Shown: positions 325 to 63,009 of the stretch, piece by piece | Layout: the number at the start of each line of letters is the position of its first letter | How positions within the stretch are numbered: the stretch's first letter is position 1 | Source: Dictyostelium discoideum | Taxonomy: Eukaryota | Assembly: GCA_000004695.1 (NCBI GenBank) | Contig: CM000152.2 | Location: 3,552,001 to 3,616,000 of the forward strand | Length of the DNA: 64,000 bases | Direction: 5' to 3' | Notes under the pieces: model-generated | The model's input: the letters and a program-made list of their open reading frames with translations, nothing else | The model's database searches: none | What the model was told of the DNA's origin: nothing | Program-made: the position numbers and the translations under genes

Positions 325-3300
325 TTAAAAATTGAATACTTTTTTACAGTAATAGTAAGTTGAATTCTTTAAATTGAATTTTAATTTTTTTGGTTTGTTA
401 TTATTAAATAAATTTACAATATAATCAACATCAGTTATTGAGATATAATTATTTTGATAAAGGAATTCAACAATTTCCAAACGATCCTCTGAAATTAAGT
501 CTGCAAAATTTTGATTTACAAGCTCTTCTAAATATTGTTTTCCAATTTTATTATCATGTAAAAATTGAGCAACTGAAAGATGACCTTTTAAAACTGAATG
601 TTGTAACATTAGTTTTATCTTTTTTCTGAATTCTTCACAATTGTTTTTATAAGATTGTGATGATGATGATGATGGTGGTTGTGATGGTGGGGAACCATTA
701 TAATATTCATCAAATAATAAACCAATGAATTCAGTATCACCATTTTGAAGAATTAAATCATAGATTGTTGAATCAAATAAATGGAATTTAAAATTATCTT
801 TATAGATTTGAAGGAATTCTATAGATCTACCACAAACATAATAAAGTATATCAATACCTTTACTAACTTTGTTTCTTAAGAATGGAGTATTTAAAATCCA
901 ATTAAACAATGGTAAATAATATTGTAATTGATTATTATTATGAAAGAATTGAATATCAAATGCAAATGGATTTTTTAATTTCTTAATTACAGCTTTTATA
1001 AGTTTAATTTGTTTTTCAATATCATCTTGATCTAAATTATCTGGTTTCTCTATAACATTATAACTTTTTAATGATGTATCAGATGCTGTATTATTTGAAG
1101 TTATTGTTGTTGTTGTAGAAGTAGTAGTAGTTGCACCACCAACACCATCAGCACCATCAAGACGATCAACACGATCAACACGATCAAGACGATCAACACG
1201 ATCAAGACCATCAAGACGATCAACACTATCAACACGATCAACACGATCAACACCATCAACACGATCAAGACCATCAACACGATCAAGACTATCAACACGA
1301 TCAACACGATCAACACTATCAACACCATCAAGACCATCAGCACGATCAAGACCATCAATACCATCAACACAATCAAGAAGATCAGGACCATCAACATGAC
1401 CAACACGATCAACACCATCAGCAGTACCATCAACACGATCAACACCATCAGCAGCACGATCAACACGATCAACACGATCAACATGATCAACACGATCAAC
1501 ACCATCAATACCATCAACACAATCAAGAAGATCAGGACCATCAACATGACCAACACGATCAACACCATCAGCAGTACCATCAACTCCAGCAATATTAGTA
1601 GTAGTAGAATTTGTTGTTGTGGCTTGTAATTTTGAATTTGTTTCGGTTAAAGATTTTTTAGTTTTTAAAGAAAATGTAAATGTACATAAATCTGGAATAT
1701 CAAATGATCTTGGATTTTGAATTACAAATAATAAACATCTTAATGATTGACAATCTTGGAAAGTGTAAGAGCATCTTAATGGAAATGGTGTAATTGTGAA
1801 ACCACGAGTTTCTTCTTTTGAAATGAATGCAAGAATTAACTTTGACATTGAAACGAATAAATCCATTCTTCCATTAATAAACCATTCAGTATAGTCCCAA
1901 TTACAAAAAATGGTTGATCTATCTGGTAACCAAGATTTTACATTTTCATCACCAGGATGATTCCATGGATAAGTATTGGTTTTTGAAGATAATTCAAATA
2001 CAGTTTCCAATGTTTTAACTGATGAGATGTGTTTACAAAGATTTGCAAGTGGTAAAATCTCTCTAACGAATCTACTTGATTTTTGAGTATAATCAAAATA
2101 ATGACCAAGATTATACCAACTTGAATAAATCTTTTCAGAATCATCATTAAGTATAGCGTTAATTAAAAAGAAGTATCTCAAAGCTTGAATGAATGGTGTT
2201 AGTACAAGTTTAGGATTTAAATGTCTATTATAATTATAATAAGAGTCACGTTTCAATTCTATGTATAATTGTTTGATTCTTTCTTCGTCAAATGGATTAC
2301 CCTTTTCACATTTTCTAAATAACATAGTTTTCATATCAGATTCAGTAAGCATTTCAATAAGGCAAGGCACTGTGTCAACATAAGGATAAACCCAAATATC
2401 AAACATTTGATGGTCAGCATTCTCTAAAATACTAATTACAGTTTTGAAATCTAATCCAGAACTGTTGACATTTATTGTATTCCTTCCTATATTTCTATTG
2501 AAACTATCACTGATTTCAAATTTATTTTTAACTAATATATAATAATAATCTGGTGCTATAAAACTATTTGGAGTTTTATTCTTATATAGAAATGTTTTGA
2601 ATGTATAAAACATTTCAATTAACTTTCTTGCATATTGGTCATTCTTTTTAATTAATTCAACAACTGGTTTTTCAAGATACTCTTTAGTGAAAATGTTGGG
2701 ATTATTTTTAACAAATTGATCTAGTTGTAATTTATCTAATAGATAGTATGAAATATACCAAATTCGATGGTGATATGTCATATTTTCTGTATAAATACTT
2801 AAAACATCTAAATCAATTTCATTTTTGCTTCTACCTGATAAAAGAATTGAATCTGGTATTATAAAATTTCTCAATATAGAAATGGCATAACATGCATTCA
2901 ATAATTGAGAAACATTGAAGTTTTGAACTAGTGGACACCCTCCAAAGAGTGAAATACAAACTAATTCATCTCCATCGATATCTTTAGTTTTGAATTTTAA
3001 ATTATCTTGATTAATTTCATCAATTTTAATTAAAAGTTCATAGTAATCATTTAATTCAGTATTTGATAATTTCCAATTAAAAAGTGGTAATTTATTATCA
3101 TCTAATAATAATTTTGTACCTTTTGTAATAGATCTATATAGTTTATTCAATGGAAAAAACAATTCAATATTTCTTCTTGAAATTAATTCTCCATCGTCTG
3201 GAAAATTTTTAACTTCAAGACCTAAAATAACTAATCTTGATTTTTTACGATTATATAGGTCTATCTTTTCTCTAACTTCTTCGGTTGGACGATAACTAGT

Positions 3301-7150: not shown

Positions 7151-10381
<3,231 letters not shown>

Positions 10382-11227
10382 TTTATTTTAGAAAAGAAAT
10401 ATTAATATTAATACAAAGTGAATAGATTAAACAATGAAATAAATATAATTATTTAAATAAAAAAAAAAAAAAAAAAAAAAAAGAATAGTTAAATAAAGAG
10501 AATAAATAATTAAATTAAAATTTTCTTTTTATTTTGTTTTTTTTTTTTTCATTATTTTTTTTTTTTTCATTTTTTATTTTTAATTATTTTTTTTTGTTTT
10601 AATCAATATAACTGAATTAAACCCACAAATTTGTGTGTGCTTTTTTATTTTTTTTTTTCACAATCTATAATCGAGATGGCATAATTTTTAATAACCTCTA
10701 GTGATCACCCCTATAAATAGTTTTTATTATCATTATTATTATTTTATATTTGGAACCACTGTAGTTGTTATCTGAAATAAACATCACAAATGTGATTGAA
10801 GTTGAAAAAAATAAATTATTTGTTTGTTTTTTTTTTTTTAATTTCTTTTTTTTTTTTTAATTAATCTTTAACTTTATTTCAAAGAAAAGGGTTAACTATT
10901 GACATACTAAATATTATTACCTTGTGGTTCACATGGTGTTTTTTTTTAAATAATAATAATAATAATTGACAATAAAAATAAAAATAATAATAAAAATAAT
11001 TGAAAAAAAAAAAAAATTTTGAAAAAAAAAAAAAGTGAAAAAAAAGAAAAAAAGCGATTAAATAAATTAAAAAGTGAAAAAAAAAATAGTCAAAAATAGT
11101 TGCTTTTTTTTTTTACCTAAAAGTAAACAATTGCCCAAAAATAATTTATAAAAAAAAATGATTTGGTGGGCTTTGATTGTAATAGATTCAATTTGTTAAT
11201 TTTTTTTTTTTTTTAATTTTGAATTTA

Positions 11228-11261
<34 letters not shown>

Positions 11262-11957
11262 CAATAGAATCTTCTCAAATATTAAAATATACAATAACAA
11301 TAAAAAAAAAAAAAAAAAAATAAAAATAAAAAAAAATTATAATTTATAAAATTAAATAAGGAAACTAAAAATAGAATTATAAATAAAAAAAAAAATAAAA
11401 AAAAAATAAAAAAATAAAAAATTTGTAAAATTTTTTACTATGACACCATTTATATCTTATATCTATTTTTATCAATCATATTATTATTATTATTATAAAA
11501 TGTAAAAAATTTAGACATAATTTCCCACACAGCACAGTATAATTATAACGAACCATTTTTTTCAAAAATAAAAAAAAAAAAAAAAAAAAAACAAATTAAA
11601 AATTAAATCAAAAAAAAAAATTAAATCAAAAAATAAAAAAAAAAACTACCAAGATATAAAAAAAAAATATATATATATAAAAAAAAAAAAATAGTTAAAA
11701 TAATATTATTTTTAAATTCACCATTAAAAACAAAAAAAAAAAAACAAAAAAAAAACAAAAAAAAAAAAAATACATATACAATAAAATGAATATGGATGTG
11801 GAGTTTGAAAATGAAAATATGTATAGCAATGAAATATTAGAAGTTTTACATGAAAAAATTTACACAGAAAATGAGGTATGAATTTAATTATTTATATTAA
11901 TTAATAAAAAAAAAAATAAAAAAAAAAATAAAAACTAAAAATAAATTATTTTAATAA

Positions 11958-12293
11958 ATGATGAAAAAAAAAAAAAAAAAAAAGTTATATTTTTTTTCTG
12001 ATATAATGTTTAATTATAAATTCCATTTAAGTAAAAGGAAATTATTCACAATTGATTGTTGGTTAAATCAAAAATCCCAATATCTAAAATTCATTGACCA
12101 TTTACATTTTGATTTAGTTCATACTGGAGAAATAGATTTATATAATTCAATTGAAGGTGAACCAAAACCGTATAGATGTTTTAGTTGTAAAAAATATAGA
12201 CCTGATGAATGGATAAAACTTTCAATAATTAAAAATGTAAATGTTTATCTTTGTCAAAGTTGTGGTTCAAAAGGAAAAATTTATTATCATTAA
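11958..12293 (+). CDS. Small Cys-rich (CxxC...CxxC zinc-ribbon-like) protein of unknown function, with a possible 5' exon at 11786..11875
   Basis: The 111-aa ORF contains ...CFSCKKYRPDEWIKLSIIKNVNVYLCQSCGS. An upstream ATG-initiated 30-codon segment (MNMDVEFENENMYSNEILEVLHEKIYTENE) ends at a GTATGA donor. An in-frame acceptor AAAAAG|TTATAT at 11984/11985 would join it. Confidence 0.4.
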   Translation: MMKKKKKKKLYFFSDIMFNYKFHLSKRKLFTIDCWLNQKSQYLKFIDHLHFDLVHTGEIDLYNSIEGEPKPYRCFSCKKYRPDEWIKLSIIKNVNVYLCQSCGSKGKIYYH

Positions 12294-12500
12294 TAAAAAT
12301 AATAAAAATAATAAAAATTAAAAATTAAAAAATAAAAATTTAATAATAAAAAAAAATAAATATAATTCTTTGGATTAATTAAAATATCCTTTTTTTTTTA
12401 TTAATTGTATAATTTTAAAGTATTCTTTGTTTACTATCATTTTAAAATTTAATTACAATGGAAATTGGAAAAAAAAAAAAAAAAGCCCCTCTCTCTCGAG

Positions 12501-12534
<34 letters not shown>

Positions 12535-12618
12535 ATTTTTTATTTTTTATTTTTTTTTTTTGAAATTACTTCCAACTCACATACGCATTATTCGTATAAA
12601 GATATATATATAGATATT

Positions 12619-13083
12619 ATGTCAGAACCACAACAACAACAAGTTAATTTAGGATCATTATCCTTAGAACAATTACAGATGGTTCGTGAACAAGTTGAAG
12701 CTGTAGGTTTTGAAAAATAAAAATAAAAAAAACACAACTCAACTCAACACAAAACAAGGAAACAATCTTTGTTTTAGATTTAATCAAAAATAGATAAATA
12801 GTTCTAGATGTAGATAGATCATTTGTATTTACCACTTCACTTATTTTATTTTAAATTGTGTATATATATATATATATATAGGAAATTCAACAACTTTCAG
12901 AATCAATTCAACAACTCAAACATGCATCAAATAAGTATATAGAAGCTAAAGAAGCTATGGGTGGTCTTAAAGGTACTGATGGAAAAGATATGTTAGTTCC
13001 ATTAACTTCATCTGTATGTTAATTTTTATTCTCTCCTTTTGAATATATCTCAATTTTAAAACACATATTAACATAAATAACAC

Positions 13084-22245: not shown

Positions 22246-22318
22246 CGCCCAAAGGGGGGCTCGAACCCCCGACCACAAGGTTAAAAGCCTTGCGCTCTAC
22301 CGACTGAGCTATCTGGGC
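22246..22318 (-). tRNA. tRNA-Lys(UUU): tRNA-Lys (anticodon UUU), 73 nt
   Basis: RC is GCCCAGATAGCTCAGTCGGTAGAGCGCAAGGCTTTTAACCTTGTGGTCGGGGGTTCGAGCCCCCCTTTGGGCG. It folds as a cloverleaf: 7-bp acceptor stem with one G-U, A box TAGCTCAGTCGG, anticodon loop CTTTTAA, B box GGTTCGAGCCC. It closely resembles metazoan tRNA-Lys-TTT. Confidence 0.9.
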
Positions 22319-25716: not shown

Positions 25717-26283
25717 ATGTTATCAGAATTATTCAACAGTTTAGCATCATTTTTTAGTAACATATTCTCATTATTTGAAGGTAAAAAAGAAACAAGAATA
25801 TTAATGATTGGACTTGATGGTGCAGGTAAATCAACACTTTTATATAAATTAAAATTGGGTGATGTTGTTTCAACCATTCCAACCATTGGTTTCAATGTCG
25901 AAACTATTGAATATAAAAATTTATCAATGACAGTTTGGGATGTAGGTGGTCAACATAAAATTCGTCCATTATGGAAACACTATTATCATGGTTCAAATGC
26001 AGTCATCTTTGTAGTTGATAGTACTGATCGTGAAAGAATGGATGAAGTTAAAGAGGAAATTGATAATCTTTTAATTCAAGATGAATTAAAAGGTACACAA
26101 ATATTAGTATTTGCAAATAAACAAGATATGAATAATGCAATGAATACTGCAGAAATTGTAAACTCTTTAGATTTAAATTCAATTAAAGATAGAAAATGGT
26201 ATGTTCAACCATGTAGCGCCATTAGATCAGATGGTATATATGAAGGATTTGATTGGGTAGCAAATTCACTCAATAATAAATAA
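25717..26283 (+). CDS. ARF-like small GTPase (ADP-ribosylation factor family), 188 aa, copy 1
   Basis: [17 protein letters not shown] (P-loop), [11 protein letters not shown] (switch I), [13 protein letters not shown] (switch II with the catalytic Gln), NKQD, CSA. About 60% identity to ARF1 along the full length. It lacks the N-terminal Gly2 myristoylation site (MLSELF...), so it is ARF-like rather than a canonical ARF. Confidence 0.9.
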
Positions 26284-34247: not shown

Positions 34248-34814
34248 ATGTTATCAGAATTTTTCAACAGTTTAGCATCATTTTTTAGTAATATATTCTC
34301 ATTATTTGAAGGTAAAAAAGATACAAGAATATTAATGATTGGACTTGATGGTGCAGGTAAATCAACACTTTTATTTAAATTAAAATTGGGTGATGTAGTT
34401 TTAACCATTCCAACCATTGGATTCAATGTCGAAACTATTGTATATAAAAATTTATCAATGACAGTTTGGGATGTAGGTGGTCAACATAAAATTCGTGCAT
34501 TATGGAAACACTATTATCATGGTACAAATGCAATCATCTTTGTAGTTGACAGTACTGATCGTGAAAGAATGGATGAAGTTAAAGAGGAAATTGATAATCT
34601 TTTAATCCAAGATGAATTAAAAGGTATACAAATATTAGTACTTGCAAATAAACAAGATATGAATAATGCAATGAATACCGCAGAAATTGTAAACTCTTTA
34701 AATTTAAATTCAATTAAAGATAGAAAATGGTATGTCCAACCATGTAGTGCCATTAGATCAGATGGTATATATGAAGGATTTGATTGGGTAGCAAATTCAC
34801 TCAATAATAAATAA
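34248..34814 (+). CDS. ARF-like small GTPase, copy 2 (about 94% aa identity to 25717..26283)
   Basis: Same motifs as copy 1, with about 11 substitutions (e.g. E25D, Y43F, S52L, P83A). The promoter element is conserved at 34035..34135. Confidence 0.9.
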
Positions 34815-44979: not shown

Positions 44980-45520
44980 TAATGTATATAGATAATAAAA
45001 AATATACATTCCATACACACCAAATGTGTTGTGTCGTTTCATTTTTGAAAGAAAAAAATGAAAATTCCCACTATTACCACCAAACACATTGGCATTCATT
45101 TTTTTTTTATGTCAATAAATTAAATGAATACAAAAAAAACTCACACTCACCACCACACCCACTTCTATATATCAAATTTGTATTGCATTTTTATTTTGTG
45201 TCTTTTCATAATAATAACAAAACACACCAAATGTGTTGTGTCTTTTCATTTTTTAAAACAAAAAATACTATAATTGTATTTATTCTCTAGTGTCGTTTCA
45301 TTTTTGAAAGAAAAAAAGAAAACTCTCAATATTACCCCAAACAAATTGGCATACATTTTATGTCAATAAATTATATGAATACAAATTAAAAAAACTCACA
45401 CCATCTATACATCTTATTTGTATGACATTTTTATGTTGTGTCTTTTCATTTTCCAAACAAAATTCTACAACTGATTTCATTCTCTTGTATCGTTTCATTT
45501 TTTAAAAAAAATAATACATT
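44980..45520 (-). repeat. Two units of the ~250-bp repeat family (same family as the tandem array at 60400..61130, opposite orientation)
   Basis: Repeated core acaccaaatgtgttgtgtc(g/t)tttcattttt...gaaagaaaaaaa(g)aaaa(t/c)tc(c/t)ca(c/a)tattacc...aaacacattggcat is the reverse complement of ...atgccaatttgtttggtggtaatagtgag...ctttcaaaaatgaaacgacac...aaaatgaaaagacacaacacatttggtgtg at 60420..60560. Confidence 0.7.
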
Positions 45521-48211: not shown

Positions 48212-49559
48212 AATAGTGCGATATATTATTACTTGGTTTATTGCACTAAATTTTATTATGACAACACTATGACCACAAAAGTTTGTATAACTTAATTTTT
48301 TAATTTTCCATTGTTTTTTTTTTTTTTTTTAAAATTGATGTTTTTATCCTATCAGAGAAAAAATATTTTTTTAATATAAATTAGTATATAAAAATTGAAC
48401 ATTCAAAAATACACAATATGATAAAGAAAATAATTTATCCGTTCTTTTTTTTGAATTTTTTTTTTTTTTTTTGATCTAGATTTACAAATAAAAAATTATC
48501 ATTAAAAAACAAAATATGCCAATGTGTTTGGTGGTAATAATGAGATTTTTCTTTTTTTTTCTTTCAAAAATGAACCGACACGATAGAATGAATTCAATTT
48601 TAGTATTTTTTTCCTTCAAAATTGAAAAGACACAACACATTTGGTGTGTTTTTTATTTTTTTTATAATTTTTTTTTTTATTAAATTAAGAGAGTTGTTAA
48701 ATAATAATTATAATAATAAAAATAATTTTCAAAACAATTAAAATAAAGAATATATTACATCATCCAACAGAAAATACATTTTATACAATTTAATTTACCT
48801 TTAATATTTATTAAATTGAATTTATAAATTTTAAATAAATAAATAACTTTTATTTTTGTTAATTATTTTTTTTTTTTTTATAAAAGGTTGTTATTAAAAA
48901 ATTTTTTGTTTGGTTTTTTTTTTTTTTTTTAAATTTAAAAAAAGAATGTTAACTTATAGATCACTTTGCTAATGCCAGATAGTAATGAAATTAAACCATA
49001 GAAACTATTAAAATATTTTAGTGGTGAATTTTTTTATATTGCCTTGAATCAAGAGATTCTTGCTGCCTATGGCTGTTTGCCTATTTTTTCGTGTGCGACC
49101 ATTTGGTAAACTTGACATTTTAGGCTGCACCATGGTGATCGGCGACCACCACATACAAAGACTTAATTGAAAAAAAAAATTAAAATTTTATTTTTTAAAT
49201 TAGGCTCGTGACCAAATAAAAAACGCTTCAAACATACAACGAAATAAAATAAAATAAAATAAAATAAATAAAAAAATTATTTGTAATAATATTTTAAAAA
49301 ATAAATATTAATTTTAAAATTAATCAATTATTCTTAAACTATTATTTTATATAAATAAATCATTATTACCTTATTTAATTAAATAATATAAACAATTATT
49401 TTATTATTTTAATTTTCTATTAAATAAATTTGTTTTTTTATTTTTGTTTTATTTTTTCTTCATCTACAAGAATCATATTCTATATGTTAATGATTATTGA
49501 CTGTATTGTTGCGCATATGGTGATTTTTTTTATCTTTTTTTTTTTTTCTTTTTAAATAA

Positions 49560-50280
49560 TAATTTAATACAACTTTGTATTCACCTAAAAAAGATTTTGA
49601 ACAAGTCTATCACTGGATTTCTAGTTTCTCTGTAATACCAATAATAACAAGACGAATAGTTACACTAGCATCGTAGCAAAACCTTTGATTACCATAGAAT
49701 CAGAGATTAAAAATGGGTCAATATTCTCTTGTACTTGACCTTTCTTAATTGGGTCATATTCAGCAGTGATTGATGATTCATCATAAGTCATGTTGATAAT
49801 CAGCGTTAGCATGTAAAGCAACTTCAATTGATCTAATAGAATAAAGCATTTCTAGTGGTACAACATTCTTTGCTAATTAAACCATCACAAGCGGTTTCAT
49901 GATTTTCAAATACCACAGCGATAGATCTTTTCAATGATACATTTCGACAGAATTGGTTATCATATTTCAAGAGGGCACACTCTTCCAAAGGTTTCAATAC
50001 TTTTCAAACACCGATTGTGATGATTATAATTTTCTCTTTATTAAATTGGATAACTCTTCAATCATCATTCTCCAATTTTTGAAAATAAAAAAACAAAATT
50101 AGTAAAAATAATTAATTTATTTGTTCATTCATTTATTTTATTTATTTATTAATTTAATTTTTTTTTTTTTTTTTATTTTTATTTTTTTTTAAAAAAAAAA
50201 AAACAACCTACATTCATATGATATGGTGAACTTTTTACTTGTTTTACTATTTTGGTTGACCATATCCCCTGAATTATTTT
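49560..50280 (+). mobile_element. Left arm of a diverged inverted repeat. It is a copy of the interspersed GC-richer element, in inverse orientation to 54535..55650.
   Basis: 49961..50075 (...ggtttcaatacttttcaaacaccgattgtgatgattataattttctctttattaaattggataactcttcaatcatcattctc) is the reverse complement of 54820..54915, at about 85% identity. 50215..50280 is the RC of 54535..54600. AT-rich insertions separate the blocks. Confidence 0.6.
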
Positions 50281-52055: not shown

Positions 52056-52451
52056 ATGGTAAAAAATAGTGAACATCTACCATGGTATTTAGGCAGTGAC
52101 TCTGCAACCGCTGCTTCCACAGCAACTGATGCCACCTCTGCAGATGGTGCCGCCTCTGAAACTGATGCCGCCTCTGCAACTGATACCACCTCTGCAACTG
52201 ATCCCACCTCTGCAACTGATCCCATTGCCACTACCAATACCACCGGCATTACATCCAGTGGTCCTACTACCAACGGTAGAAGAGGTAGACCATATATATC
52301 AACACCACCAAATCGTTGCTATGATTGTGGAAGAACCAGATCTCCATATTGGAGAAAAGGAACCTACAACGGCCAAGTTGTACATCTTTGCAACGCTTGT
52401 GGTTTAAATCATATCAAAATCGCAAAAAAATCATCAGCAATATTTTTGTAA
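52056..52451 (+). CDS. GATA-type zinc-finger protein (short, single C-terminal GATA finger), at least 131 aa
   Basis: RRGRPYISTPPNRCYDCGRTRSPYWRKGTYNGQVVHLCNACGLNHIKIAKK matches the C-x2-C-x17/18-C-x2-C finger and basic lead-in of the other two GATA genes here. The N-terminal part is an 18-bp in-frame tandem repeat encoding (TSATD/ASATD)n with unusually GC-rich codons. Confidence 0.7.
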   Translation: MVKNSEHLPWYLGSDSATAASTATDATSADGAASETDAASATDTTSATDPTSATDPIATTNTTGITSSGPTTNGRRGRPYISTPPNRCYDCGRTRSPYWRKGTYNGQVVHLCNACGLNHIKIAKKSSAIFL

Positions 52452-53401: not shown

Positions 53402-53492
<91 letters not shown>

Positions 53493-53545
53493 TAAATAAA
53501 TAATACAGAAATTAAGTAAATAAAATTCGGATGGAACCTACATAA
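53290..53545. repeat. Repeat segment present in inverted orientation at 61755..62000. It flanks the 3' side of both copies of the 160-aa ORF, in different arrangements.
   Basis: RC of 61921..61990 matches 53300..53365. 53505..53545 (tacagaaattaagtaaataaaattcggatggaacctacat) is the RC of 61760..61800. Each is adjacent to a 50-70-nt homopolymer (poly-T at 53413..53482, poly-A at 61811..61870). Confidence 0.6.
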
Positions 53546-53550
53546 ATTTA

Positions 53551-54033
53551 TTATTGTCCTTGATTTGGTTGGTTTGGTTGGTTTGCTGCTGCTGCTGCTG
53601 CTGCATCATCCTCAGCGAATAACTGGGCGATGAGATTCATGTCAACTAAATCGTGAGTATTAACTGGTGTTAAAACTGCATAGTTAATATCAATATGGGG
53701 ATATTGTTTTTGTGTATATAATATGGCCTCGTCAACTTCAGCTCTGATATCCCAACCTGCTTGATCAGATCTTGCGAAAAAAATAGCAGCGGTGTCACCC
53801 ATTTTTGGGTACCATATTGGGTTTCTATTGAGTCTTGCTTTAAATCTTTTTCTGGCATTTGTTATGTAATTAGGTGAGGCGTAATCATAATTGGCACCGT
53901 TATTGGTAGCAGCCAAGGCAAGTACAGTTTGTGGTATTTGATCTAAATCTCTAATTTTTATTGCTTTTGTGACAATTACTTTTGAACAATACACACCATT
54001 GTCATTATATAAACTTGGGTTGATTGACGACAT
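53551..54033 (-). CDS. Hypothetical 160-aa protein with GC-richer codon usage, copy A. The ORF is probably repeat- or transposon-associated.
   Basis: MSSINPSLYNDNGVYCSKVIVTKAIKIRDLDQIPQTVLALAATNNGANYDYASPNYITNARKRFKARLNRNPIWYPKMGDTAAIFFARSDQAGWDIRAEVDEAILYTQKQYPHIDINYAVLTPVNTHDLVDMNLIAQLFAEDDAAAAAAANQPNQPNQGQ. The coding GC is about 40%, against roughly 25-30% for other genes here. It is 99% identical to 62124..62606, including ~200 bp of the 5' flank. No family recognised. Confidence 0.5.
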   Translation of the reverse strand: MSSINPSLYNDNGVYCSKVIVTKAIKIRDLDQIPQTVLALAATNNGANYDYASPNYITNARKRFKARLNRNPIWYPKMGDTAAIFFARSDQAGWDIRAEVDEAILYTQKQYPHIDINYAVLTPVNTHDLVDMNLIAQLFAEDDAAAAAAANQPNQPNQGQ

Positions 54034-54534
54034 TCTTGAAAAAATAAAAAAATTAAAAAAAAAAAATTTTTTTTGAAATGATTTTTATCTAAAATATTTC
54101 GAGATTTTATAAAAAAAATTAAACTTTTTTTGATTTTGCAGCGTCACCACTACTATGTAAAATATTTACAATGCATTTACAATGCAATTACATTGTGATT
54201 TGTCTTTAAGTAAATTAACGTATCCCATATTAATTTTATCTATAATCAGAGAGATATAAAACTAATTTTTTTTTTTTTTTATATCTAAAAACTAGGAAAA
54301 AATATTAAAAAATAAAAATAAAAAAATCTTTTTAATTAAAAATATTTATTCGGTCATTCATTTTTCTTTTTTTTTTTTAAAAAAAAAACAATAAATAAAT
54401 AAAGGAAAAAAAGAAATTTATGAAACTTAAAAAAAAAAAGTAAAAAAGTTTTTTTTGGAATTTATTTTTTTTTTTTTTTTATATTTATAATTCAACAATA
54501 AACAAAATCAACAACATAATGTCTAAATGATCAA

Positions 54535-54608
54535 ATAATTCTCTGGGTGAAGATATGGTCAACCAAAATATAAAACAAGTAAAAAAAGTTCAATATAGAT
54601 GTAAGTTG

Positions 54609-54639
<31 letters not shown>

Positions 54640-55650
54640 GAAAAAATAAAAACAAATAAAAAATAAATAAAAATAAAAAATAAATAAAATAAAAAAAAAA
54701 AAAATAAATAAATAAAATAAATAAATAAATAAATAAATAAATAAATTAAAAAATTAATGTATGAATTAGTAAATAAATAAATTAATATTTTTACTAATTT
54801 TTTTTTATTTATTTTCAAATTAGAGAATGATCATTGAAGAGTTATCCAATTTAATAAAGAGAAATTTATTATGGTCACAATCGGTGTTTGAAATGTATTG
54901 AAACCATAGAAAGGGTGTACCCGCTTGAAATATGACAACTAATACTCGAAATGTACCATTGAAAAGAGCTATCGCTATTGTATTTGAAAATCGTGAAACC
55001 ACTGGCGATGATTTAATTGGCAAAGAATGTGTACCACTAGAAATGGTTTAATCTATTCGATCAATAGAAATTGCTTTACATGTTCTCGCTGATTATAAAC
55101 ATGACCTATGATGAATAATCGATCACTGCTGAATGTGACCCAATTAAGAAAAGTCAAGCATAAGAGAATATGACCCATTCTTAATCTCTGGTTCTATGGT
55201 AATCAAAGGTTTTGGTACTATGTTAGTCACAGCCGTTGGTGAAATTATAATAATTTCATTCAATAGTAAACAAGTTAGCCAAAATCAACAAAAATGTTAA
55301 ATTATGTTACACTTTGAATTATACAAATTCATTATTAGTTTTAGCAAGTGAAAACTCCATTCGAGACAAAACAAGATAATATTGGTGTTGTTATTATTGG
55401 TATTACAGAGAAACTAGAAATCCAGCGATAGACTTGTTCAAAATCTTTTTTAAGCCAATACAACGCTCAATTAAATTATTATTTTTTAAAATCACATATT
55501 CACAACTATACAGTCAATAATCAAATGGTCGTACACCACCAGCTGGTGGTCAGTGACCTAATATGAGAAGACCGCAGTCTACAAATATCTAGCGAACACT
55601 GACCCATTATTGTCAAACGGCCGTCGGACACCAGCCTTTTAATTCATTAC
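54535..55650 (-). mobile_element. Right arm of the inverted repeat. It is the longest copy of the interspersed GC-richer element, with a terminus at ~55650.
   Basis: Inverse-complement matches to 49560..50280. The terminal 120 bp matches 42040..42160. It contains a short ORF (54820..55023) of no recognisable function. Followed at 55655..55720 by a small direct duplication (gatctataagttaaaaattttt x2). Confidence 0.6.
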
Positions 55651-55794
55651 CACCTGGCATTGGCAAAAGTGATCTATAAGTTAAAAATTTTTAACTTATA
55701 GATCTATAAGTTAAAAATTTTTTTTAAATTGTTTAAAAAAAAAATAAAAAAAAAAATTAATTAAATTTTCTAAAATACATTTTATACAGTTTTA

Positions 55795-55872
55795 TTTACT
55801 GTTGTAGGGAATTTTTTTTGAAATTTCGCTTTCTAAACGGCAGTGAATTTTTACACTAAAATACACTGTTTA
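55795..55872 (+). repeat. Solo copy of the 70-bp terminal inverted repeat of the MITE-like element (see 62791..63734)
   Basis: ctgttgtagggaattttttttgaaatttcgctttctaaacggcagtgaatttttacactaaaatacactgtttatac is identical to the left TIR at 62791..62866. Confidence 0.7.
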
Positions 55873-56518
55873 TACCTTTATTTATTAAATTGAATTAATA
55901 AATGTATAACTTTTTTTTATTTTTTTTAATAAATTTTTTTTTTTTTTTTTTTTTTTTATATGGATTGATGTATAAACAAAATAATTCAAAATTGTAAAAT
56001 TAATTATTAAAATTAAAAATAAAAATAATAAAAAATAATAAAAATTAATAATTAAAATTAAAAATAAAAATAATAAAAATATGAATTTTATTACTAAATC
56101 TTTTTTTTTTTTTTTTTTTAATTTTTATTCCCATTTTTCCTTTTTTTTTTTTTTTTTTTAGATTTACTGTACTTTACTTTATATTTGTCGTCAATGCATC
56201 ACTTTGAAAATTTAAAATACATAACAAAAAAAAAAAAAAAATTAAACAGTGCAGGAATTGATTTTTCAATTAAAAAAAAAGAAAAATCTCACTATTTCCA
56301 TGATTATTGTTTCTATTAATACTATAACCCCATTATTATTACCATTTATATTAATATTATTATAAATTGTTTTTTTTTTTTTTGTTCACCCCCAATAAAT
56401 TTATCACAAAATATGTCCTCATTCATTAGTTATTAAAGAAACTAAAAATAAAATAAAACAATAAATATAATTAAAATAACAAAATAAAATAAAATAAAAT
56501 AAAATAAAATAAAATAAA

Positions 56519-56636
56519 ATGTTATTAGAAATTCTCAACAGTTTAGCATCATTTTTTAGTAAGATATTCTCATTATTTGAAGGTAAAAAAGATATAAGAA
56601 AATTATTGATTGGAATTTCTGAAATCATTGGTTTTA
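56519..56636 (+). pseudogene. 5' fragment (first ~30 codons) of a third ARF-like GTPase copy, truncated by a deletion that fuses it to the antisense Tgr-like pseudogene
   Basis: atgttattagaaattctcaacagtttagcatcattttttagtaagatattctcattatttgaaggtaaaaaagatataagaaaattattgattgga matches the first ~96 nt of the ARF-like genes ([32 protein letters not shown]). From ~56604 the sequence bears no relation to ARF, and by 56650 it is the reverse complement of the Tgr-like C-terminal region. Confidence 0.7.
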
Positions 56637-58760
56637 TACGTCAATGTTGTACTTGGTCCCTGGACGAACTCCTGTAGTATTTTTATTATTTGATTTTACA
56701 TTAACTTTGAATTCTTTGTCACTTGTCAATAAATTCTTACCAGAAACTGTGATATGACCTCCACAAGTAAGTGTTTTATTATCTTTATTTGTTATATGAT
56801 AAATGACAGGAGGTAATGTTAAATAAAAGAATGAATCCATATAATTACCATCTACAGTAATATTAATTGGGCCATTTTTATATGAATCCAATATTTTAAT
56901 AGTTAATTGATGATCTTTTAATTCTAGAATTTCTGATGAAATATCACTACCATTTAAATAAACTTTAATTAATGATGTTGAATTACCAAAATTATTACCA
57001 TGTAATTCAATATTAGTTCCATCATCTGAAATTGTACGATTCTCAACTTCAGGTGGTGCATATGAGAATTGATCACTGACTGTCTCTGAGTTTAATTTGA
57101 ATATAAATTGTTTATTAATACCAGTGCCATATGGTGTTGGACATGTTGTTTTATAGTAACTAGAATTTGATGATGGTATTGAACATAGTGAGGCTGATGA
57201 TGAATCACCAACAGTAATACTTGGTGCTGGTGAACTAATTGTACAATCCATATAAAATATTTCAATATTTAATATTCCATTTGATACTGTTGGTCTATTG
57301 GTTACATTTACTGATAATGATGCAGAAATTGAAAGTGTGTTTGCGGTAATATTAGAACGAGTGAAATTACTATTAAATGATCTACATCTTAAATGAGGTA
57401 ATTCAAATGTTAAACTCTTTTCATCAGATGATACATTAAATTTGCTAATGTTTGTATTATTAATTCCATCACCTATAATTGAATGGATGATTCGTTATTT
57501 GTACCAAGATTTGTACCAATTAATGTAACGATACCATTTGAATATGACCCACTTGATAATGTTGGAATATTATATGTAAATAATACACCATTAGGACTTG
57601 TTGAATCACAACCACCGAAATTAACTTTAACCGGTAAGTTTTTACCACCCAGTTCATTTTTTTCTTATTTACATTCCAATTCAGTTGGTGTTGATATAAT
57701 AAATGTACATTGTTTATCACCAATTATAATTGATGGTGTCAAAGATGAATTTAAAGTCGAAGATAGTTTTTCACCTTTAATTGTTACAATACCATCTAAA
57801 CGATTTGATAATGATGATATTGATGTTATAATTGCTGGGAAACAATGATTATAATTCTTTTCAATTGAGACACCATTTACGGTAATACTAACAGACATTG
57901 GGCCAGGCGCAACTCTATTAATGTTACTCACTTGAATTTGTGTATGATTTACTGAAATAATAAAATTTAGTTGAGTAATACCATCAAAATAAACCGTAAC
58001 CAACTTTTTATTTGTAAAGAAGTTATCACCATTAATTGTTATTATTTGTTTCAATGAGTCAAAAACGGTACTTGATATTTTAGGTGATACGTATGAAAAT
58101 GGTACTTTAAATACACCAGTTTCATCATAGTACAACCTAAAAGTTCCAGATCCTGGTGGAAATATTACAGTAATATTATTTAGAGTAGATCCATCAGAGA
58201 AATTACCTTTAACAACCAAAGGTTTAGAAGTATCAATGGAATTTAGAAGGAAATTAGGACCACCAAATAATCTTAAATATGAGCCAGTAATGACCCTATC
58301 TTCACCAGATGTTTTGGTTTTTTACTATATTTCAAATTGGATGCTTTTGGATAATATATTAAAGGCGAAACATCAAATGTACAATCCTCAACAGTATTTG
58401 ATATATCTCTAGCACATATCTTACTGTCTATACTACCCCATAATCTTGAGAATGGTTCATCTTAATGGAATAAACAATGCTCTCTCCATCAACTAGGGTA
58501 CAATTGAAATAATTTGGTGCCATTTCAGTTCTGGGTTCTTTTTCGTTTTTATACAAAATTAAACGGGTAGAATATGGGAGATTACTATTAAAAATAAATG
58601 TAAATGATTTATCATCATATATTACATCTAATAAAAAAAATTAATTACATAAACAAATTATTATAAATAATTAAAAATTTAATGATAATACCTATTGGTG
58701 ATGGACGATACATTGAATATCCTGATTTAAAGAACAAAAATAAAATCAGTAATATTATTT
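56634..58760 (-). pseudogene. Third Tgr-like IPT/TIG gene copy, degenerate: several frameshifts/stops and the C-terminal ~200 codons deleted
   Basis: A signal exon ([26 protein letters not shown], ~58755..58680), a 68-bp intron, then a body homologous to copies 1 and 2. The body is broken into ORF pieces 57665..58219 and 56634..57251, with stops or frameshifts near 58330, 58470, 57640 and 57480. It ends ...[24 protein letters not shown], where copies 1 and 2 continue for ~200 more aa. Confidence 0.7.
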
Positions 58761-58926
58761 TCTGTTCCATTTTTATCAATAATTTTTTTTATTTTGAACT
58801 TGGCTTTGTCAATAATTTTTATAAAAGAAAATTAAAAAAGAGAAATTTAATTATTTTAGGAAATTTTAATTTTAATTAAATAAATAGATAAAAAAAGATA
58901 AAAAAAAATTAATAAATGTAGAAAAA

Positions 58927-58961
<35 letters not shown>

Positions 58962-59439
58962 ATAAATATATAAATTAAAAAAACAAAATAAAATAAAAAA
59001 ATAAATAATAATAATGAAAAAAAACCATAAAATTCTAAAAAGAGGCTATCTGGTGAATGAGTTTGAGTGTGGTGTTTCATTTATATGAAAAGGGAGTGGT
59101 TTTTTTTGTTGAATGGGGTATTTTTTTTTATGTTAAACCCCTTTTTCTAAAAATAAAAAATGTTTTTTTATGTAAATTTTTTATTAGGAAGTGTGAATTA
59201 TATAATGAAACAGTTGTCAATGTAAAAATGGATACGGTTGGAAGAAAATATTATTTAAATCCACTCGAGTTTCCTTACAAGAATCTGCTATGCGATTTAA
59301 ATATTTTATTTAAATTCACACCAGAAATCCCATAATTCTCAAATATACCCACTACAGGTGGAGAATTCGGGTTCACCTTCAACTTTCCTTGCAACTATAA
59401 GCGAACCGCCAAATCAATATATAAAACAATATATAAAGA

Positions 59440-60110
59440 AACATCTATTTTAAATCTCAGTTTCGATACAAGCAAAAATCAGTTCGTTACTTACTTGGAT
59501 CCAGGGTGTGGTCCTTTATATTTAATTAGTGATAATATCACCATTTTCAGTACAACAATTGAAAGTGGTGCCATACCCAATGTACCAATTCTCGATGATG
59601 ATAAAGGTATTTTAACTATTCAAGGTAGTAATCTCTACAACACGTCAATTAAAATTTATTTCAACTAACATTGTGAAAGACACCAACCCTATTGGTACAA
59701 TAGATGCTTCCCATTCTTCTGTCACATTCTCAGTTGAAGAATTTTTAACTCCAAATAATTGGACAATTGAAGTCTCAATATGTGGCTCATTTTATAAAAG
59801 CTATTCCTACCCATATGGATTACCGGTTCTCACTAAAATGGAAGGGGGTACTTAATGATAATGGTGGTAATATGGTATTTACTGGAAAGCATTTAAGACC
59901 AAAACCAATATTGACAAAAAGAAAACTGCAACATTGGAAGAACCTGGATTTTTTATTGAAAATAATAATACCATTTTTATATTCCTACCAAATAATACTC
60001 AACCTGGTTTTATGAACCTTGTTGTTGGTGACGGTGGTCGTGAAATATTTACATCTCCATGATATAATTATCGCTCCAACTATTACTGCTGGCCAAACCT
60101 TCAAATCAAG
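59440..60110 (+). pseudogene. Additional degenerate IPT/TIG (Tgr-like) gene fragment with frameshifts
   Basis: Frame-shifted pieces: ...CGPLYLISDNITIFSTTIESGAIPNVPILDDDKGILTIQGSNLYNTSIKIYFN*, KDTNPIGTIDASHSSVTFSVEEFLTPNNWTIEVSICGSFYKSYSYPYGLPVL, NDNGGNMVFTGKHLRPKPI, FLIENNNTIFIFLPNNTQPGFMNLVVGDGGREIFTSP. The G(S/T)NL / ITV-type strand motifs are similar to the intact copies, but no continuous frame exists. Confidence 0.35.
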
Positions 60111-60399
60111 TGGTAATAAATGGTTAAATAAATAATAAAAAAAAAAAAAAAAATATAATCCAGGTTTAATTAATTTTAAAACAAATTATTTATTCCATCC
60201 ATTTTTTTTATTATTTTATTAGTATAGATAAATAGAACACTCAAAAAATTAACAAAATGATATAAAAAATAAAAAGAAATGAAGGTGACCACTTTATTTT
60301 TAAATTTTTAAATTTTTTTTTTATTTTTTTTTTTTTATATATATTTAATTATATTTCTATAAATATATATATGAAAAATATAAATAAAATGATTTTATT

Positions 60400-61130
60400 T
60401 ATTTATTGAAGTATAAAAAAATATATGAGAATGTGTTTGGTGGTAATAGTGAGGGTTTTCTTTTTTTTTCTTTCAAAAATAAAACGACACTAGAGAATGA
60501 ATACAATTTTAGTATTTTTTGTTTTAAAAAATGAAAAGACACAGCACATTTGGTGTGTATTGGGTGTGTGTTTTTGTTATTGTTATGAAAAGACAAACAT
60601 AAAAATGCCATACAAATTTGTTTTTAGAAGTGGGTGTGGTGGTAAGTGGGTTTTTTATATGTATTTATATTCATATAATTTATTGATTATAAAAAAAATA
60701 TTCCAATGTGTTTAGTGGTAATAGTGGGAGTTTTCTTTTTTTTCTTTCAAAAATGAAACGACACAAGAGAGTGGGTTTAGTTGTGCAATTTTGTTTAAAA
60801 AATGAAAAGACAAAAAATAAAAATTACATACAAATTAGATGTATAGAAGTGGGTGTGGCGGTAAGTGTGAGTTTTTTATTTGTATTTATAATTTATTGAT
60901 ATAAAAAAAATATATGATTATTTGTTTGGTGGTAATAGTGAGGATTTTCTTTTTTTTTGTTACAAAAATGAAACGACACTAGAGAATGAATACAATTTTA
61001 GTATTTATTATTTTAAAAAATGAAAAGACACAACACATTTAGTGTTTGTGGAATGTGGGTTTTTTTATTATCTGTATTTTTTTTCTTTCAAAAAAGAAAC
61101 GACACTACACATTTGTTGTATGTATTTTAT
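60400..61130 (+). repeat. Tandem array of about three units of a ~250-bp repeat (satellite-like)
   Basis: Three successive units each contain ...gtgtttggtggtaatagtgag(g/a)(g/t)ttttc(t)nctttcaaaaatgaaacgacac(t/a)agagaatgaatacaattttagtattt...aaaaaatgaaaagacacaacacatttggtgtg...ggtgtgg(t/c)ggtaagtg.... Partial dispersed copies lie at 44980..45520(-), 48500..48660, 51290..51340 and 53080..53260. Confidence 0.7.
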
Positions 61131-61875: not shown

Positions 61876-62123
61876 TAATGTAAATTTTATTTATTTTTTT
61901 TCTATTTTTTTATAATTATTTTAGTAATTGTTTATTTTAATAGTAATATTCAAATTTGATGAATAACAAAAAAAGACACATAATGTTTTACTCTTTAGAA
62001 AGGGAATTTTTATTTTTATTTTTTTTATTTTTATTTTTTTTTTATATTTAATTTTAAGGTTTTATAAATTCACAATGAGACCTAGTATTATTATATAAGA
62101 GTTAAATTAAATAAACTAATTTA

Positions 62124-62606
62124 TTATTGTCCTTGATTTGGTTGGTTTGGTTGGTTTGCTGCTGCTGCTGCTGCTGCATCATCCTCAGCGAATAACTGGG
62201 CGATGAGATTCATGTCAACTAAATCGTGAGTATTAACTGGTGTTAAAACTGCATAGTTAATATCAATATGGGGATATTGTTTTTGTGTATATAATATGGC
62301 CTCGTCAACTTCAGCTCTGATATCCCAACCTGCTTGATCAGATCTTGCGAAAAAAATAGCAGCGGTGTCACCCATTTTTGGGTACCATATTGGGTTTCTA
62401 TTGAGTCTTGCTTTAAATCTTTTTCTGGCATTTGTTATGTAATTAGGTGAGGCGTAATCATAATTGGCACCGTTATTGGTAGCAGCCAAGGCAAGTATAG
62501 TTTGTGGTATTTGATCTAAATCTCTAATTTTTATTGCTTTTGTGACAATTACTTTTGAACAATACTCACCATTGTCATTATATAAACTTGGGTTGATTGA
62601 CGACAT
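62124..62606 (-). CDS. Hypothetical 160-aa GC-richer protein, copy B (2 aa differences from copy A)
   Basis: Identical to 53551..54033 except V14E and V47I. The 5' flank (62607..62790) is identical to 54034..54240, until it is interrupted by the MITE-like insertion. Confidence 0.5.
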   Translation of the reverse strand: MSSINPSLYNDNGEYCSKVIVTKAIKIRDLDQIPQTILALAATNNGANYDYASPNYITNARKRFKARLNRNPIWYPKMGDTAAIFFARSDQAGWDIRAEVDEAILYTQKQYPHIDINYAVLTPVNTHDLVDMNLIAQLFAEDDAAAAAAANQPNQPNQGQ

Positions 62607-62790
62607 TCTTGAAAAAATAAAAAAATTAAAAAAAAAAATTTTTTTTGAAATGATTTTTATCTAAAATATCTCGAGATTTTATAAAAAAAATTAAACTTTT
62701 TTTGATTTTGCAGCGTCACCACTACTATGTAAAATATTTACAATGCATTTACAATGCAATTACATTGTGATTTGTCTTTAAGTAAATTAA

Positions 62791-63009
62791 TGTTGTAGGG
62801 AATTTTTTTTGAAATTTCGCTTTCTAAACGGCAGTGAATTTTTACACTAAAATACACTGTTTATACGTAGTGTAAAAATTCACTAAAATTTTTTTTTTTT
62901 TTTTATAAATTAAAAACAATTTATTTAATCAAAATAATAAAAAAACTAATTTTAAACAATTATTTGTTGTTTAAGAATTAAATAACAATTTAAATTGTTA
63001 GATTTGAGC

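Follow-up and report, generated by a model that had tools for sequence, protein, structure and literature searches.

A truncated tgrC pseudogene joined to an arr gene fragment in the tgrBC locus of Dictyostelium discoideum: junction anatomy and probable history

How does the start of one gene come to stand head-on against the antisense strand of another? The question is raised by a pseudogene in the tgrBC allorecognition locus of Dictyostelium discoideum, the locus which controls self/non-self recognition in this social amoeba. The origin of new tgrB and tgrC alleles is an active question there, and it has been proposed that recombination draws on the pseudogene copies beside the functional pair. 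Here we analyzed a window of 64,000 nucleotides of AX4 chromosome 3 (assembly GCA_000004695.1, contig CM000152.2, positions 3,552,001 to 3,616,000 of the forward strand), which lies within this locus (PMC12745789), has a guanine-cytosine content of about 22% and corresponds to about 3.627-3.691 Mb in assembly GCA_054883475.1, as judged from the positions of fetched loci. In this window the 5′ end of an arr (ARF-related GTPase) gene runs into the antisense of a decayed and truncated tgrC gene. The region is very probably the tgrB_ps/tgrC_ps1 pair of the AX4 tgrBC locus, produced by local segmental duplication, deletion and neutral decay.

The copy under study, that is the tgrC remnant together with the arr fragment, is called unit 3, and the two intact arr and tgrC pairs of the window are called units 1 and 2. 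By exact-sequence look-up, the two intact ARF-like open reading frames (ORFs) of units 1 and 2 are arrJ (25717-26283, Q54V47) and arrK (34248-34814, Q54V41), and their convergent surface-protein genes encode the IPT/TIG proteins Q54V46 (865 aa) and Q54V40 (885 aa), which are two of the annotated tgrC paralogues, probably tgrC2 and tgrC3. The AX4 tgrB1/tgrC1 locus was fetched as reference and is denoted L001, to which all L001 coordinates refer; the functional pair is situated about 20 kb from unit 3, just past the right end of the window. In this reference tgrC1 occupies 10001-12735 and encodes an intact product of 889 aa with a transmembrane helix, and two decayed arr copies lie 3′ of it in convergent orientation, arr-A at about L001 12925-13408 and arr-B at L001 16161-16646.

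The junction and the two decayed gene parts

The arr part was traced by its reading frame and by homology. An ATG at 56519 opens the arr frame, as had been proposed from the letters alone, and this start is confirmed by translation and by the intact homologues: residues 1-33 of arrJ used as tblastn query match 56519-56617, and the starts and upstream regions of arrJ and arrK match 56408/56421-56617 at 82.5-84% in blastn. The alignment against units 1 and 2 and arr-B places the last arr-specific base at about 56614, which is 96 nt or exactly 32 codons after the start and agrees with the length first given for the similarity. The kept residues 1-32 end in ...LLIG, and the G1 P-loop GxxxxGK[ST] and the remaining G domain, which would characterize the ARF family (PF00025), are gone. 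The arr part of unit 3 is a gene fragment and no member of the ARF family, as against the intact arrJ, which matches Pfam Arf with E = 5e-72. Its closest relative is arr-B, itself a decayed pseudogene: 56202-56617 is 92.3% identical to L001 16987-16548 over 440 nt, and only 82-84% identical to the upstream regions of arrJ/arrK and arr-A. The 52-residue chimeric ORF which crosses the junction gave no match in a Pfam search, and no gene is called at its position in the 2025 AX4 annotation.

The junction was resolved by a three-way alignment of unit 3 with arr-B and the reverse complement of tgrC1. Local alignments place the parental positions which flank it at L001 12253 and L001 16548, and the junction string of unit 3 is AAAATTATTGATTGGAATTTCTGAAATCATTGG. 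The two parents have AATGRTTGGA in common (9 of 10 positions match between arr-B and antisense tgrC1), and unit 3 changes from one parent to the other within TTGGA. This motif stands once in unit 3 and is present at both parents, with no filler or unassigned base at the junction; both parental breakpoints and a single junction copy were thus found, as in a microhomology-mediated deletion. By chance, about 1-2% of random arr/tgrC junctions would have a microhomology of at least 5 nt. The 5-nt match at the join points to microhomology-mediated end joining or replication slippage and not to homologous recombination or transposition.

The original prediction took about 55 nt after the arr part (56618-56672) as unrelated to either gene. 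The alignments correct this point, as 56610-56660 is tgrC antisense with a Smith-Waterman score of 54 against unit 2 (the maximum of 200 shuffles was 27) and of 88-101 against tgrC1, and since 56615-56660 is tgrC antisense, the tgrC sequence begins directly at the junction. The short piece is set apart from the rest of the gene by a 77-nt deletion, which removes tgrC1 nucleotides L001 12110-12186, or about 26 codons. This deletion and a separate 2-nt deletion both lie within 50 nt of the junction, which contradicts the single deletion first proposed. The true junction is placed 160 codons before the tgrC1 stop (about 134 and about 145 codons before the unit 1 and unit 2 stops, respectively); the earlier figure of about 200 codons holds for the point where continuous homology resumes past the 77-nt deletion, not for the junction.

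Beyond this point the reading of the downstream sequence as the reverse complement of a Tgr-like gene is borne out, since 56673-59003 matches the Tgr-like genes of unit 1 and unit 2 in the same orientation, with 80% and 79% identity, respectively, over about 2.35 kb (blastn, E = 0). The remnant has the architecture of the tgrC subfamily, with a signal-peptide exon, a phase-1 intron and a long exon with IPT/TIG and TgrO1-like Ig domains (gene model P0081, Pfam TIG E = 1.4e-12 and Ig_TgrO1 E = 1e-8). Its best matches are TgrC1 alleles (86-88%, E = 0), and its repaired translation is 86-88% identical to the TgrC1 alleles of wild strains and to LagC, as compared with 65-67% for the unit 1 and unit 2 proteins. 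The membrane-proximal part, the transmembrane helix and the tail encoded by the end of exon 2 are lost, so the features of a functional member, namely a C-terminal transmembrane helix, a cytoplasmic tail and an intact frame, are absent.

Besides the truncation, seven disabling lesions were counted against tgrC1, namely five frameshifting indels (-1, -1, -1, -77 and -2) and two TAA stops, which is more than the four or more frameshifts or stops noticed at first; two in-frame 3-nt deletions were also found. In tblastn with LagC as query the remnant is matched in three different frames at 82-92% identity. The tgrC part of unit 3 is a pseudogene of the tgrC subfamily and no functional member, and the alignments together with the lesion count confirm the central claim of the original prediction, a fusion pseudogene of an arr 5′ end and the antisense of a decayed tgrC. 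Earlier protein models which span the remnant (UPI00004E4887, 577 aa; KAM9949872.1, 641 aa, window 58770-56634) bypass the lesions by artificial introns. Omega, the ratio of nonsynonymous to synonymous divergence, was 0.70 between unit 3 and tgrC1 and 0.77 between the intact units 1 and 2, and it fails to separate the pseudogene from intact genes because the tgr family evolves fast anyway.

The parent block, the tgrB partner and the missing interval

The wider surroundings of unit 3 were compared with the reference locus to find the source of the copy. On either side of the junction the block 54260-60109 follows the tgrB1-tgrC1-arrA-arrB locus (L001 17696-8075) colinearly, at 87-98% identity, and tgrC1 with its promoter is 84-98% identical in DNA to unit 3 in sliding windows. 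On the left, 54260-54835 matches L001 17696-17121 at 98% and 55397-55525 matches L001 17121-16991 at 98.5%. On the right, a tgrB partner stands head-to-head with the tgrC pseudogene, and the intergenic region between them is colinear with that of tgrB1/tgrC1, as in the divergent tgrB/tgrC pairs. The partner covers the 5′ third of tgrB1: 59183-59912 is 87% identical to tgrB1 (L001 9373-8659) and 89% identical to a second tgrB-like gene (L001 2351-1649), and 59901-60109 is 92% identical to L001 8288-8075. It is broken as well, being matched by tblastn in three frames with an internal stop, and a gap of about 370 nt lies within it relative to tgrB1. No tgrB partner of units 1 and 2 was found by tblastn. 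Unit 3 is, on these alignments, a paralogue of the tgrB1-tgrC1-arr block and not derived from units 1 and 2.

The size of the loss depends on the relative against which it is measured. When the closest relative is the reference, the loss amounts to 4,294 bp (L001 12254-16547), an interval which comprises the 3′ end of tgrC, the whole arr-A pseudogene, two small called genes and all of arr-B bar 32 codons. Alignment with units 1 and 2 gives a smaller gap, of about 1.0 and about 1.17 kb, with which the predicted loss of about 1.2 kb is in agreement; with the closest relative it is not. The arr-A and arr-B copies are 73.6% identical to each other, as against 84-98% for the unit 3 duplication, and their split is therefore older, so that the ancestor of unit 3 most likely carried both. 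The larger size of 4.3 kb is for this reason most likely the better estimate than about 1 kb.

Table 1. Features of unit 3 and its flanks (window coordinates)
Feature	Position	Strand	Basis or remark
Left flank of the block; colinear in L001 with the DNA past arr-B	54260..55525	.	Contains an insertion of 561 nt, 54836-55396
Upstream (promoter) region of the arr fragment, arr-B type	56202..56518	+	Colinear with L001
Kept 5′ end of the arr (ARF-related GTPase) gene, 32 codons, stops just before the P-loop	56519..56614	+	Translation resembles arr-B and arrJ/arrK
Chimeric ORF, 52 codons (32 from arr and 20 from tgrC antisense)	56519..56677	+	Translation
Deletion junction, perfect 5-nt microhomology TTGGA	56610..56614	.	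Three-way anchored alignment of unit 3, arr-B and tgrC1 reverse complement
tgrC exon 2 remnant (tgrC_ps1), cut 160 codons before the tgrC1 stop	56615..58627	-	91% overall DNA identity to tgrC1
Secondary lesions: 77-nt deletion at 56660/56661 and 2-nt deletion near 56637-56640	56637..56661	-	Alignment to tgrC1
Three single-base frameshift deletions, near 58480, 58316 and 57474	57474..58480	-	Relative to tgrC1
In-frame TAA stop	57665..57667	-	TTG in tgrC1, TTA in units 1 and 2
In-frame TAA stop	58462..58464	-	TCA in tgrC1 and in units 1 and 2
tgrC pseudogene intron, GT...AG, 64 nt	58628..58691	-	Read from sequence; tgrC1 and units 1 and 2 have an intron of the same position and phase
tgrC pseudogene exon 1, signal peptide, 79 nt	58692..58770	-	Gene models P0022 and P0081 start here
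Shared divergent intergenic (promoter) region of the tgrC and tgrB pseudogenes	58771..59182	.	Colinear up to 59160 with L001 9598-10000, 88-97%
tgrB pseudogene fragment (tgrB_ps), head-to-head with the tgrC pseudogene	59183..60117	+	tgrB1 similarity

Several repeats were observed around the block. The left-flank insertion listed in Table 1, which is absent at the tgrC1 locus, is an inverted copy (86%) of 49664-50190. A second insertion relative to the tgrC1 locus, 55526-56201, contains a perfect 40-nt palindrome at 55683-55722 and an 80-nt element (55796-55875) which recurs at 62787-62866 (98.75%) and 63722-63645 (96%). The whole tgrB_ps/tgrC_ps1/arr block is flanked by direct repeats of about 790 bp (53433-54221 and 62007-62793, 94% identical), each with a 160-aa ORF on the minus strand (53551-54033 and 62124-62606). 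Their spacing is 8574 bp and that of unit 1 and unit 2 is 8572 bp, which may be a coincidence or a shared duplication period. Tandem or dispersed repeat families of 70-88% identity are spread across the window (1134-1594, 45029-45517, 60401-61084 and 48503-48681), and one array among them sits just right of tgrB_ps. The sole tRNA gene of the window is a tRNA-Lys(UUU) at 22246-22318 on the minus strand.

Further arr copies were also noted. A third one in the reference locus (L001 1-206) is 95% identical to the start of arrK and adjoins a tgrB2-like gene (L001 1359-2464), which brings the arr-derived sequences to at least six within about 100 kb. The idea that arr and tgrC neighbours duplicate together and then decay is supported by these comparisons; that they transpose as a cassette is not, for all arr and tgrC copies found are local, within this chromosome 3 locus. 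The arrH gene on chromosome 5, considered as a further arr and tgr cassette, was rejected, having no tgr neighbour; like arrF, arrJ and arrK, it is induced in hypoxia (PMC12750705). Near the block the repeats are the direct ones of about 790 bp, and no terminal repeats or target-site duplications came to notice, the block ends not having been specifically searched for them.

Proposed history and rival readings

From the homologies, the junction and the lesions described above we infer an order of events, a single 4.3-kb deletion and a mechanism of repair. A segment of about 9.6 kb with tgrB, tgrC1, arr-A and arr-B would have been copied to a nearby site, about 20 kb away from the functional tgrB1/tgrC1 pair. 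The copy would then have undergone one deletion (about 4.3 kb against today's tgrC1 locus) which joined arr-B codon 32 to tgrC codon 729, and because tgrC and arr-B are convergent, the arr 5′ end would have been left head-on against the truncated tgrC antisense. The ends would have been joined within TTGGA via microhomology-mediated end joining or replication slippage, and the tgrC remnant would have gained, or already had, its five frameshifting indels and two nonsense codons, with the tgrB partner being fragmented too. The product most likely has no coding function and is a by-product of birth-and-death evolution at the locus; any role it may have would at most be passive, as donor or recipient of sequence in recombination with tgrC1.

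The relation of the tgrC body to tgrC1 is not uniform along its length. For this comparison 56615-58770 was set against L001 10001-12253 and the TgrC1 alleles P0015-P0020 and P0082-P0088 (P0088 being AX4 TgrC1). Synonymous divergence (dS) between unit 3 and AX4 tgrC1 is 0.016 over the first 109 codons compared, 0.172 over the 237 that follow and 0.064 over the final 343 (Fisher p = 0.002-0.003). Segments of the conceptual protein are nearest to different wild TgrC1 alleles, and residues 180-350 are 91-94% identical to C0JMP6 as against 76-86% to AX4 TgrC1. The pattern suggests recombination or gene conversion which involved the pseudogene or took place among tgrC1 alleles. It agrees with the recombination described for the locus and would be compatible with an exchange between pseudogene and tgrC1, of which it is no proof; that the pseudogene swaps sequence tracts with tgrC1 alleles is hinted at.

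Some points weigh against the proposed history and they are considered together here. The uneven dS along tgrC means that the history includes recombination or gene conversion and is not that of one clean duplication. The figure of 4.3 kb presumes that the ancestor would have resembled the present-day tgrC1 locus. The names tgrB_ps and tgrC_ps1 were assigned by logic, as the only tgrB pseudogene found stands head-to-head with a truncated, stop-bearing tgrC. No intermediate, undeleted allele was found in other strains, either by exact-protein look-ups of flanking ORFs (53551-54033, 62124-62606 and 52056-52451), which gave no match or AX4 only, or at the loci of truncated tgrC homologues. Two such loci, P0065/L004 of a wild D. 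discoideum strain and P0044/L007 of D. cf. discoideum, were rejected as orthologues, being different paralogues with different flanks. At the latter (GCA_054859205.1, L007 13156-13320) another tgrC paralogue is followed by an arr 3′ fragment of residues 131-185 only; this is the opposite arr end from the one kept in unit 3, so arr genes next to tgrC copies have been truncated repeatedly and independently. A last point is that the junction may have been made during duplication itself, by template switching of the fork stalling and template switching or microhomology-mediated break-induced replication type (FoSTeS/MMBIR), with no full-length copy ever present. This course, in which the pieces L001 8075-12253 and 16548-17696 would be copied and joined at the microhomology, is unlikely. 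The microhomology junction fits it equally well, and the clustered rearrangements nearby (the 77-nt and 2-nt deletions, the 370-nt tgrB_ps gap and the two left-flank insertions) are typical of replicative rearrangement, but one genome is not enough to tell it from a deletion after duplication, and the block diverges unevenly along its length, which suggests that its history was long and complex and not a single event.

The remaining alternatives are less favoured. Unit 3 was originally taken as a third copy of the unit 1/2 arr and tgr cassette, in which one deletion of about 1.2 kb had occurred between the adjacent arr and the tgr 3′ end. The convergent arr/tgrC layout is alike in units 1 and 2 and at tgrC1, and a gap of about 1.0-1.17 kb is indeed obtained when it is measured against units 1 and 2. 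The identities speak for another parent, though: the identity of unit 3 is 84-98% with the tgrC1 locus but 79-80% with units 1 and 2, the arr fragment with its upstream region is 92% identical to the distal arr-B against 82% to the proximal arr-A, the flank past the fragment continues the arr-B flank at 98%, and unit 3 has the tgrB partner which units 1 and 2 lack, so that this origin is held to be improbable. The fusion could also be functional, with the arr promoter driving an antisense RNA through the tgrC remnant which would modulate sense transcripts of tgrC1 or tgrC_ps1 via RNA interference; being 94-98% complementary to the 3′ half of the tgrC1 mRNA, this RNA would be a trans-acting regulator by natural antisense or small interfering RNA, and the fusion, if this were true, a regulator of a kin-recognition ligand. 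The arr start and about 300 nt upstream are kept, by geometry and similarity, the antisense stretch 56660-57630 is 94-98% identical to tgrC1, and in QS33 the neighbouring tgrC pseudogene was reported to give sense RNA that is spliced and of low level (10.1101/2025.10.22.684067). Against this stand the lack of a called plus-strand gene in either annotation and the neutral decay visible throughout, and activity of the arr promoter is not implied because arr-B, its nearest relative, is itself a decayed pseudogene; both the antisense transcript and its regulatory role are very improbable. Finally, the fusion and the frameshifts might have arisen as errors of sequencing or assembly, the gene family being repetitive and AT-rich, and a preprint reports short-read data on tgr genes to be unreliable (10.1101/2025.10.22.684067). 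Positions 56400-58800 are, however, 100% identical in GCA_054883475.1, an independent long-read assembly of AX4 which has 5 mismatches and 76 gap positions relative to the window elsewhere in 14.3 kb; this shows that the structure is real, and the chance of an artefact is negligible. Duplication of the tgrB1-tgrC1-arr block followed by deletion and decay is thus retained as the preferred reading.

Comparison with known systems

The pair has a place in the literature. A recent preprint pairs tgrB_ps with tgrC_ps1 and describes the latter as a truncated gene with stop codons inside it, closest in sequence to tgrC1; it counts no more than three known tgrB genes, namely tgrB1, tgrB2 and the tgrB pseudogene, and reports a spliced mRNA at low level from the neighbouring tgrC pseudogene in strain QS33 (10.1101/2025.10.22.684067). 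The pair of the window fits this description on every point and was therefore identified with it. The supplement of the preprint gives no coordinates or primers for tgrC_ps1 or tgrB_ps, and the pseudogenes are absent from its expression table (10.1101/2025.10.22.684067). A 2025 PNAS paper depicts arr genes as duplicated together with tgr genes, and birth-and-death evolution has been invoked for the tgr genes (PMC12745789; 10.1101/2025.10.22.684067). The searchable text of the tgr papers has no mention of the arr fragment at the truncated end, of the junction and its microhomology or of the size of the missing interval. The pair is already annotated and recently discussed, and the base-level anatomy of the junction alone is new.

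Unit 3 is an ordinary product of birth-and-death at the locus; it leaves the current picture of the locus unchanged and carries little weight alone. The junction sequence is nevertheless a concrete marker, with which the event could be dated across wild strains and any movement of tracts between tgrC_ps1 and tgrC1 followed.

Compared with the tgrB_ps/tgrC_ps1 pair of the dictyBase annotation (per 10.1101/2025.10.22.684067), unit 3 is alike in its truncation, its stops, its head-to-head tgrB pseudogene and its location on chromosome 3, with no substantive difference. With the functional tgrC1 (lagC; P42523) it shares the exon 1/intron/exon 2 structure, the tgrB partner, the arr-B flank and 84-98% of the DNA from the promoter to codon 729, but 160 codons at its end and 4.3 kb of DNA downstream are missing, and it carries the seven disabling lesions. 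Units 1 and 2 (arrJ with Q54V46 and arrK with Q54V40) resemble it in the convergent arr/tgrC arrangement and in the families Arf and TIG/Ig_TgrO1, whereas their genes are intact, their DNA is 79-80% identical to unit 3 and they have no tgrB partner. Among recognition-gene clusters more widely, unit 3, whose donation of sequence to tgrC1 would be putative only, is comparable to the pseudogenes of the major histocompatibility complex (MHC), immunoglobulin and olfactory-receptor clusters, with which it has in common local duplication, truncation, frameshifts and a mosaic similarity to functional alleles.

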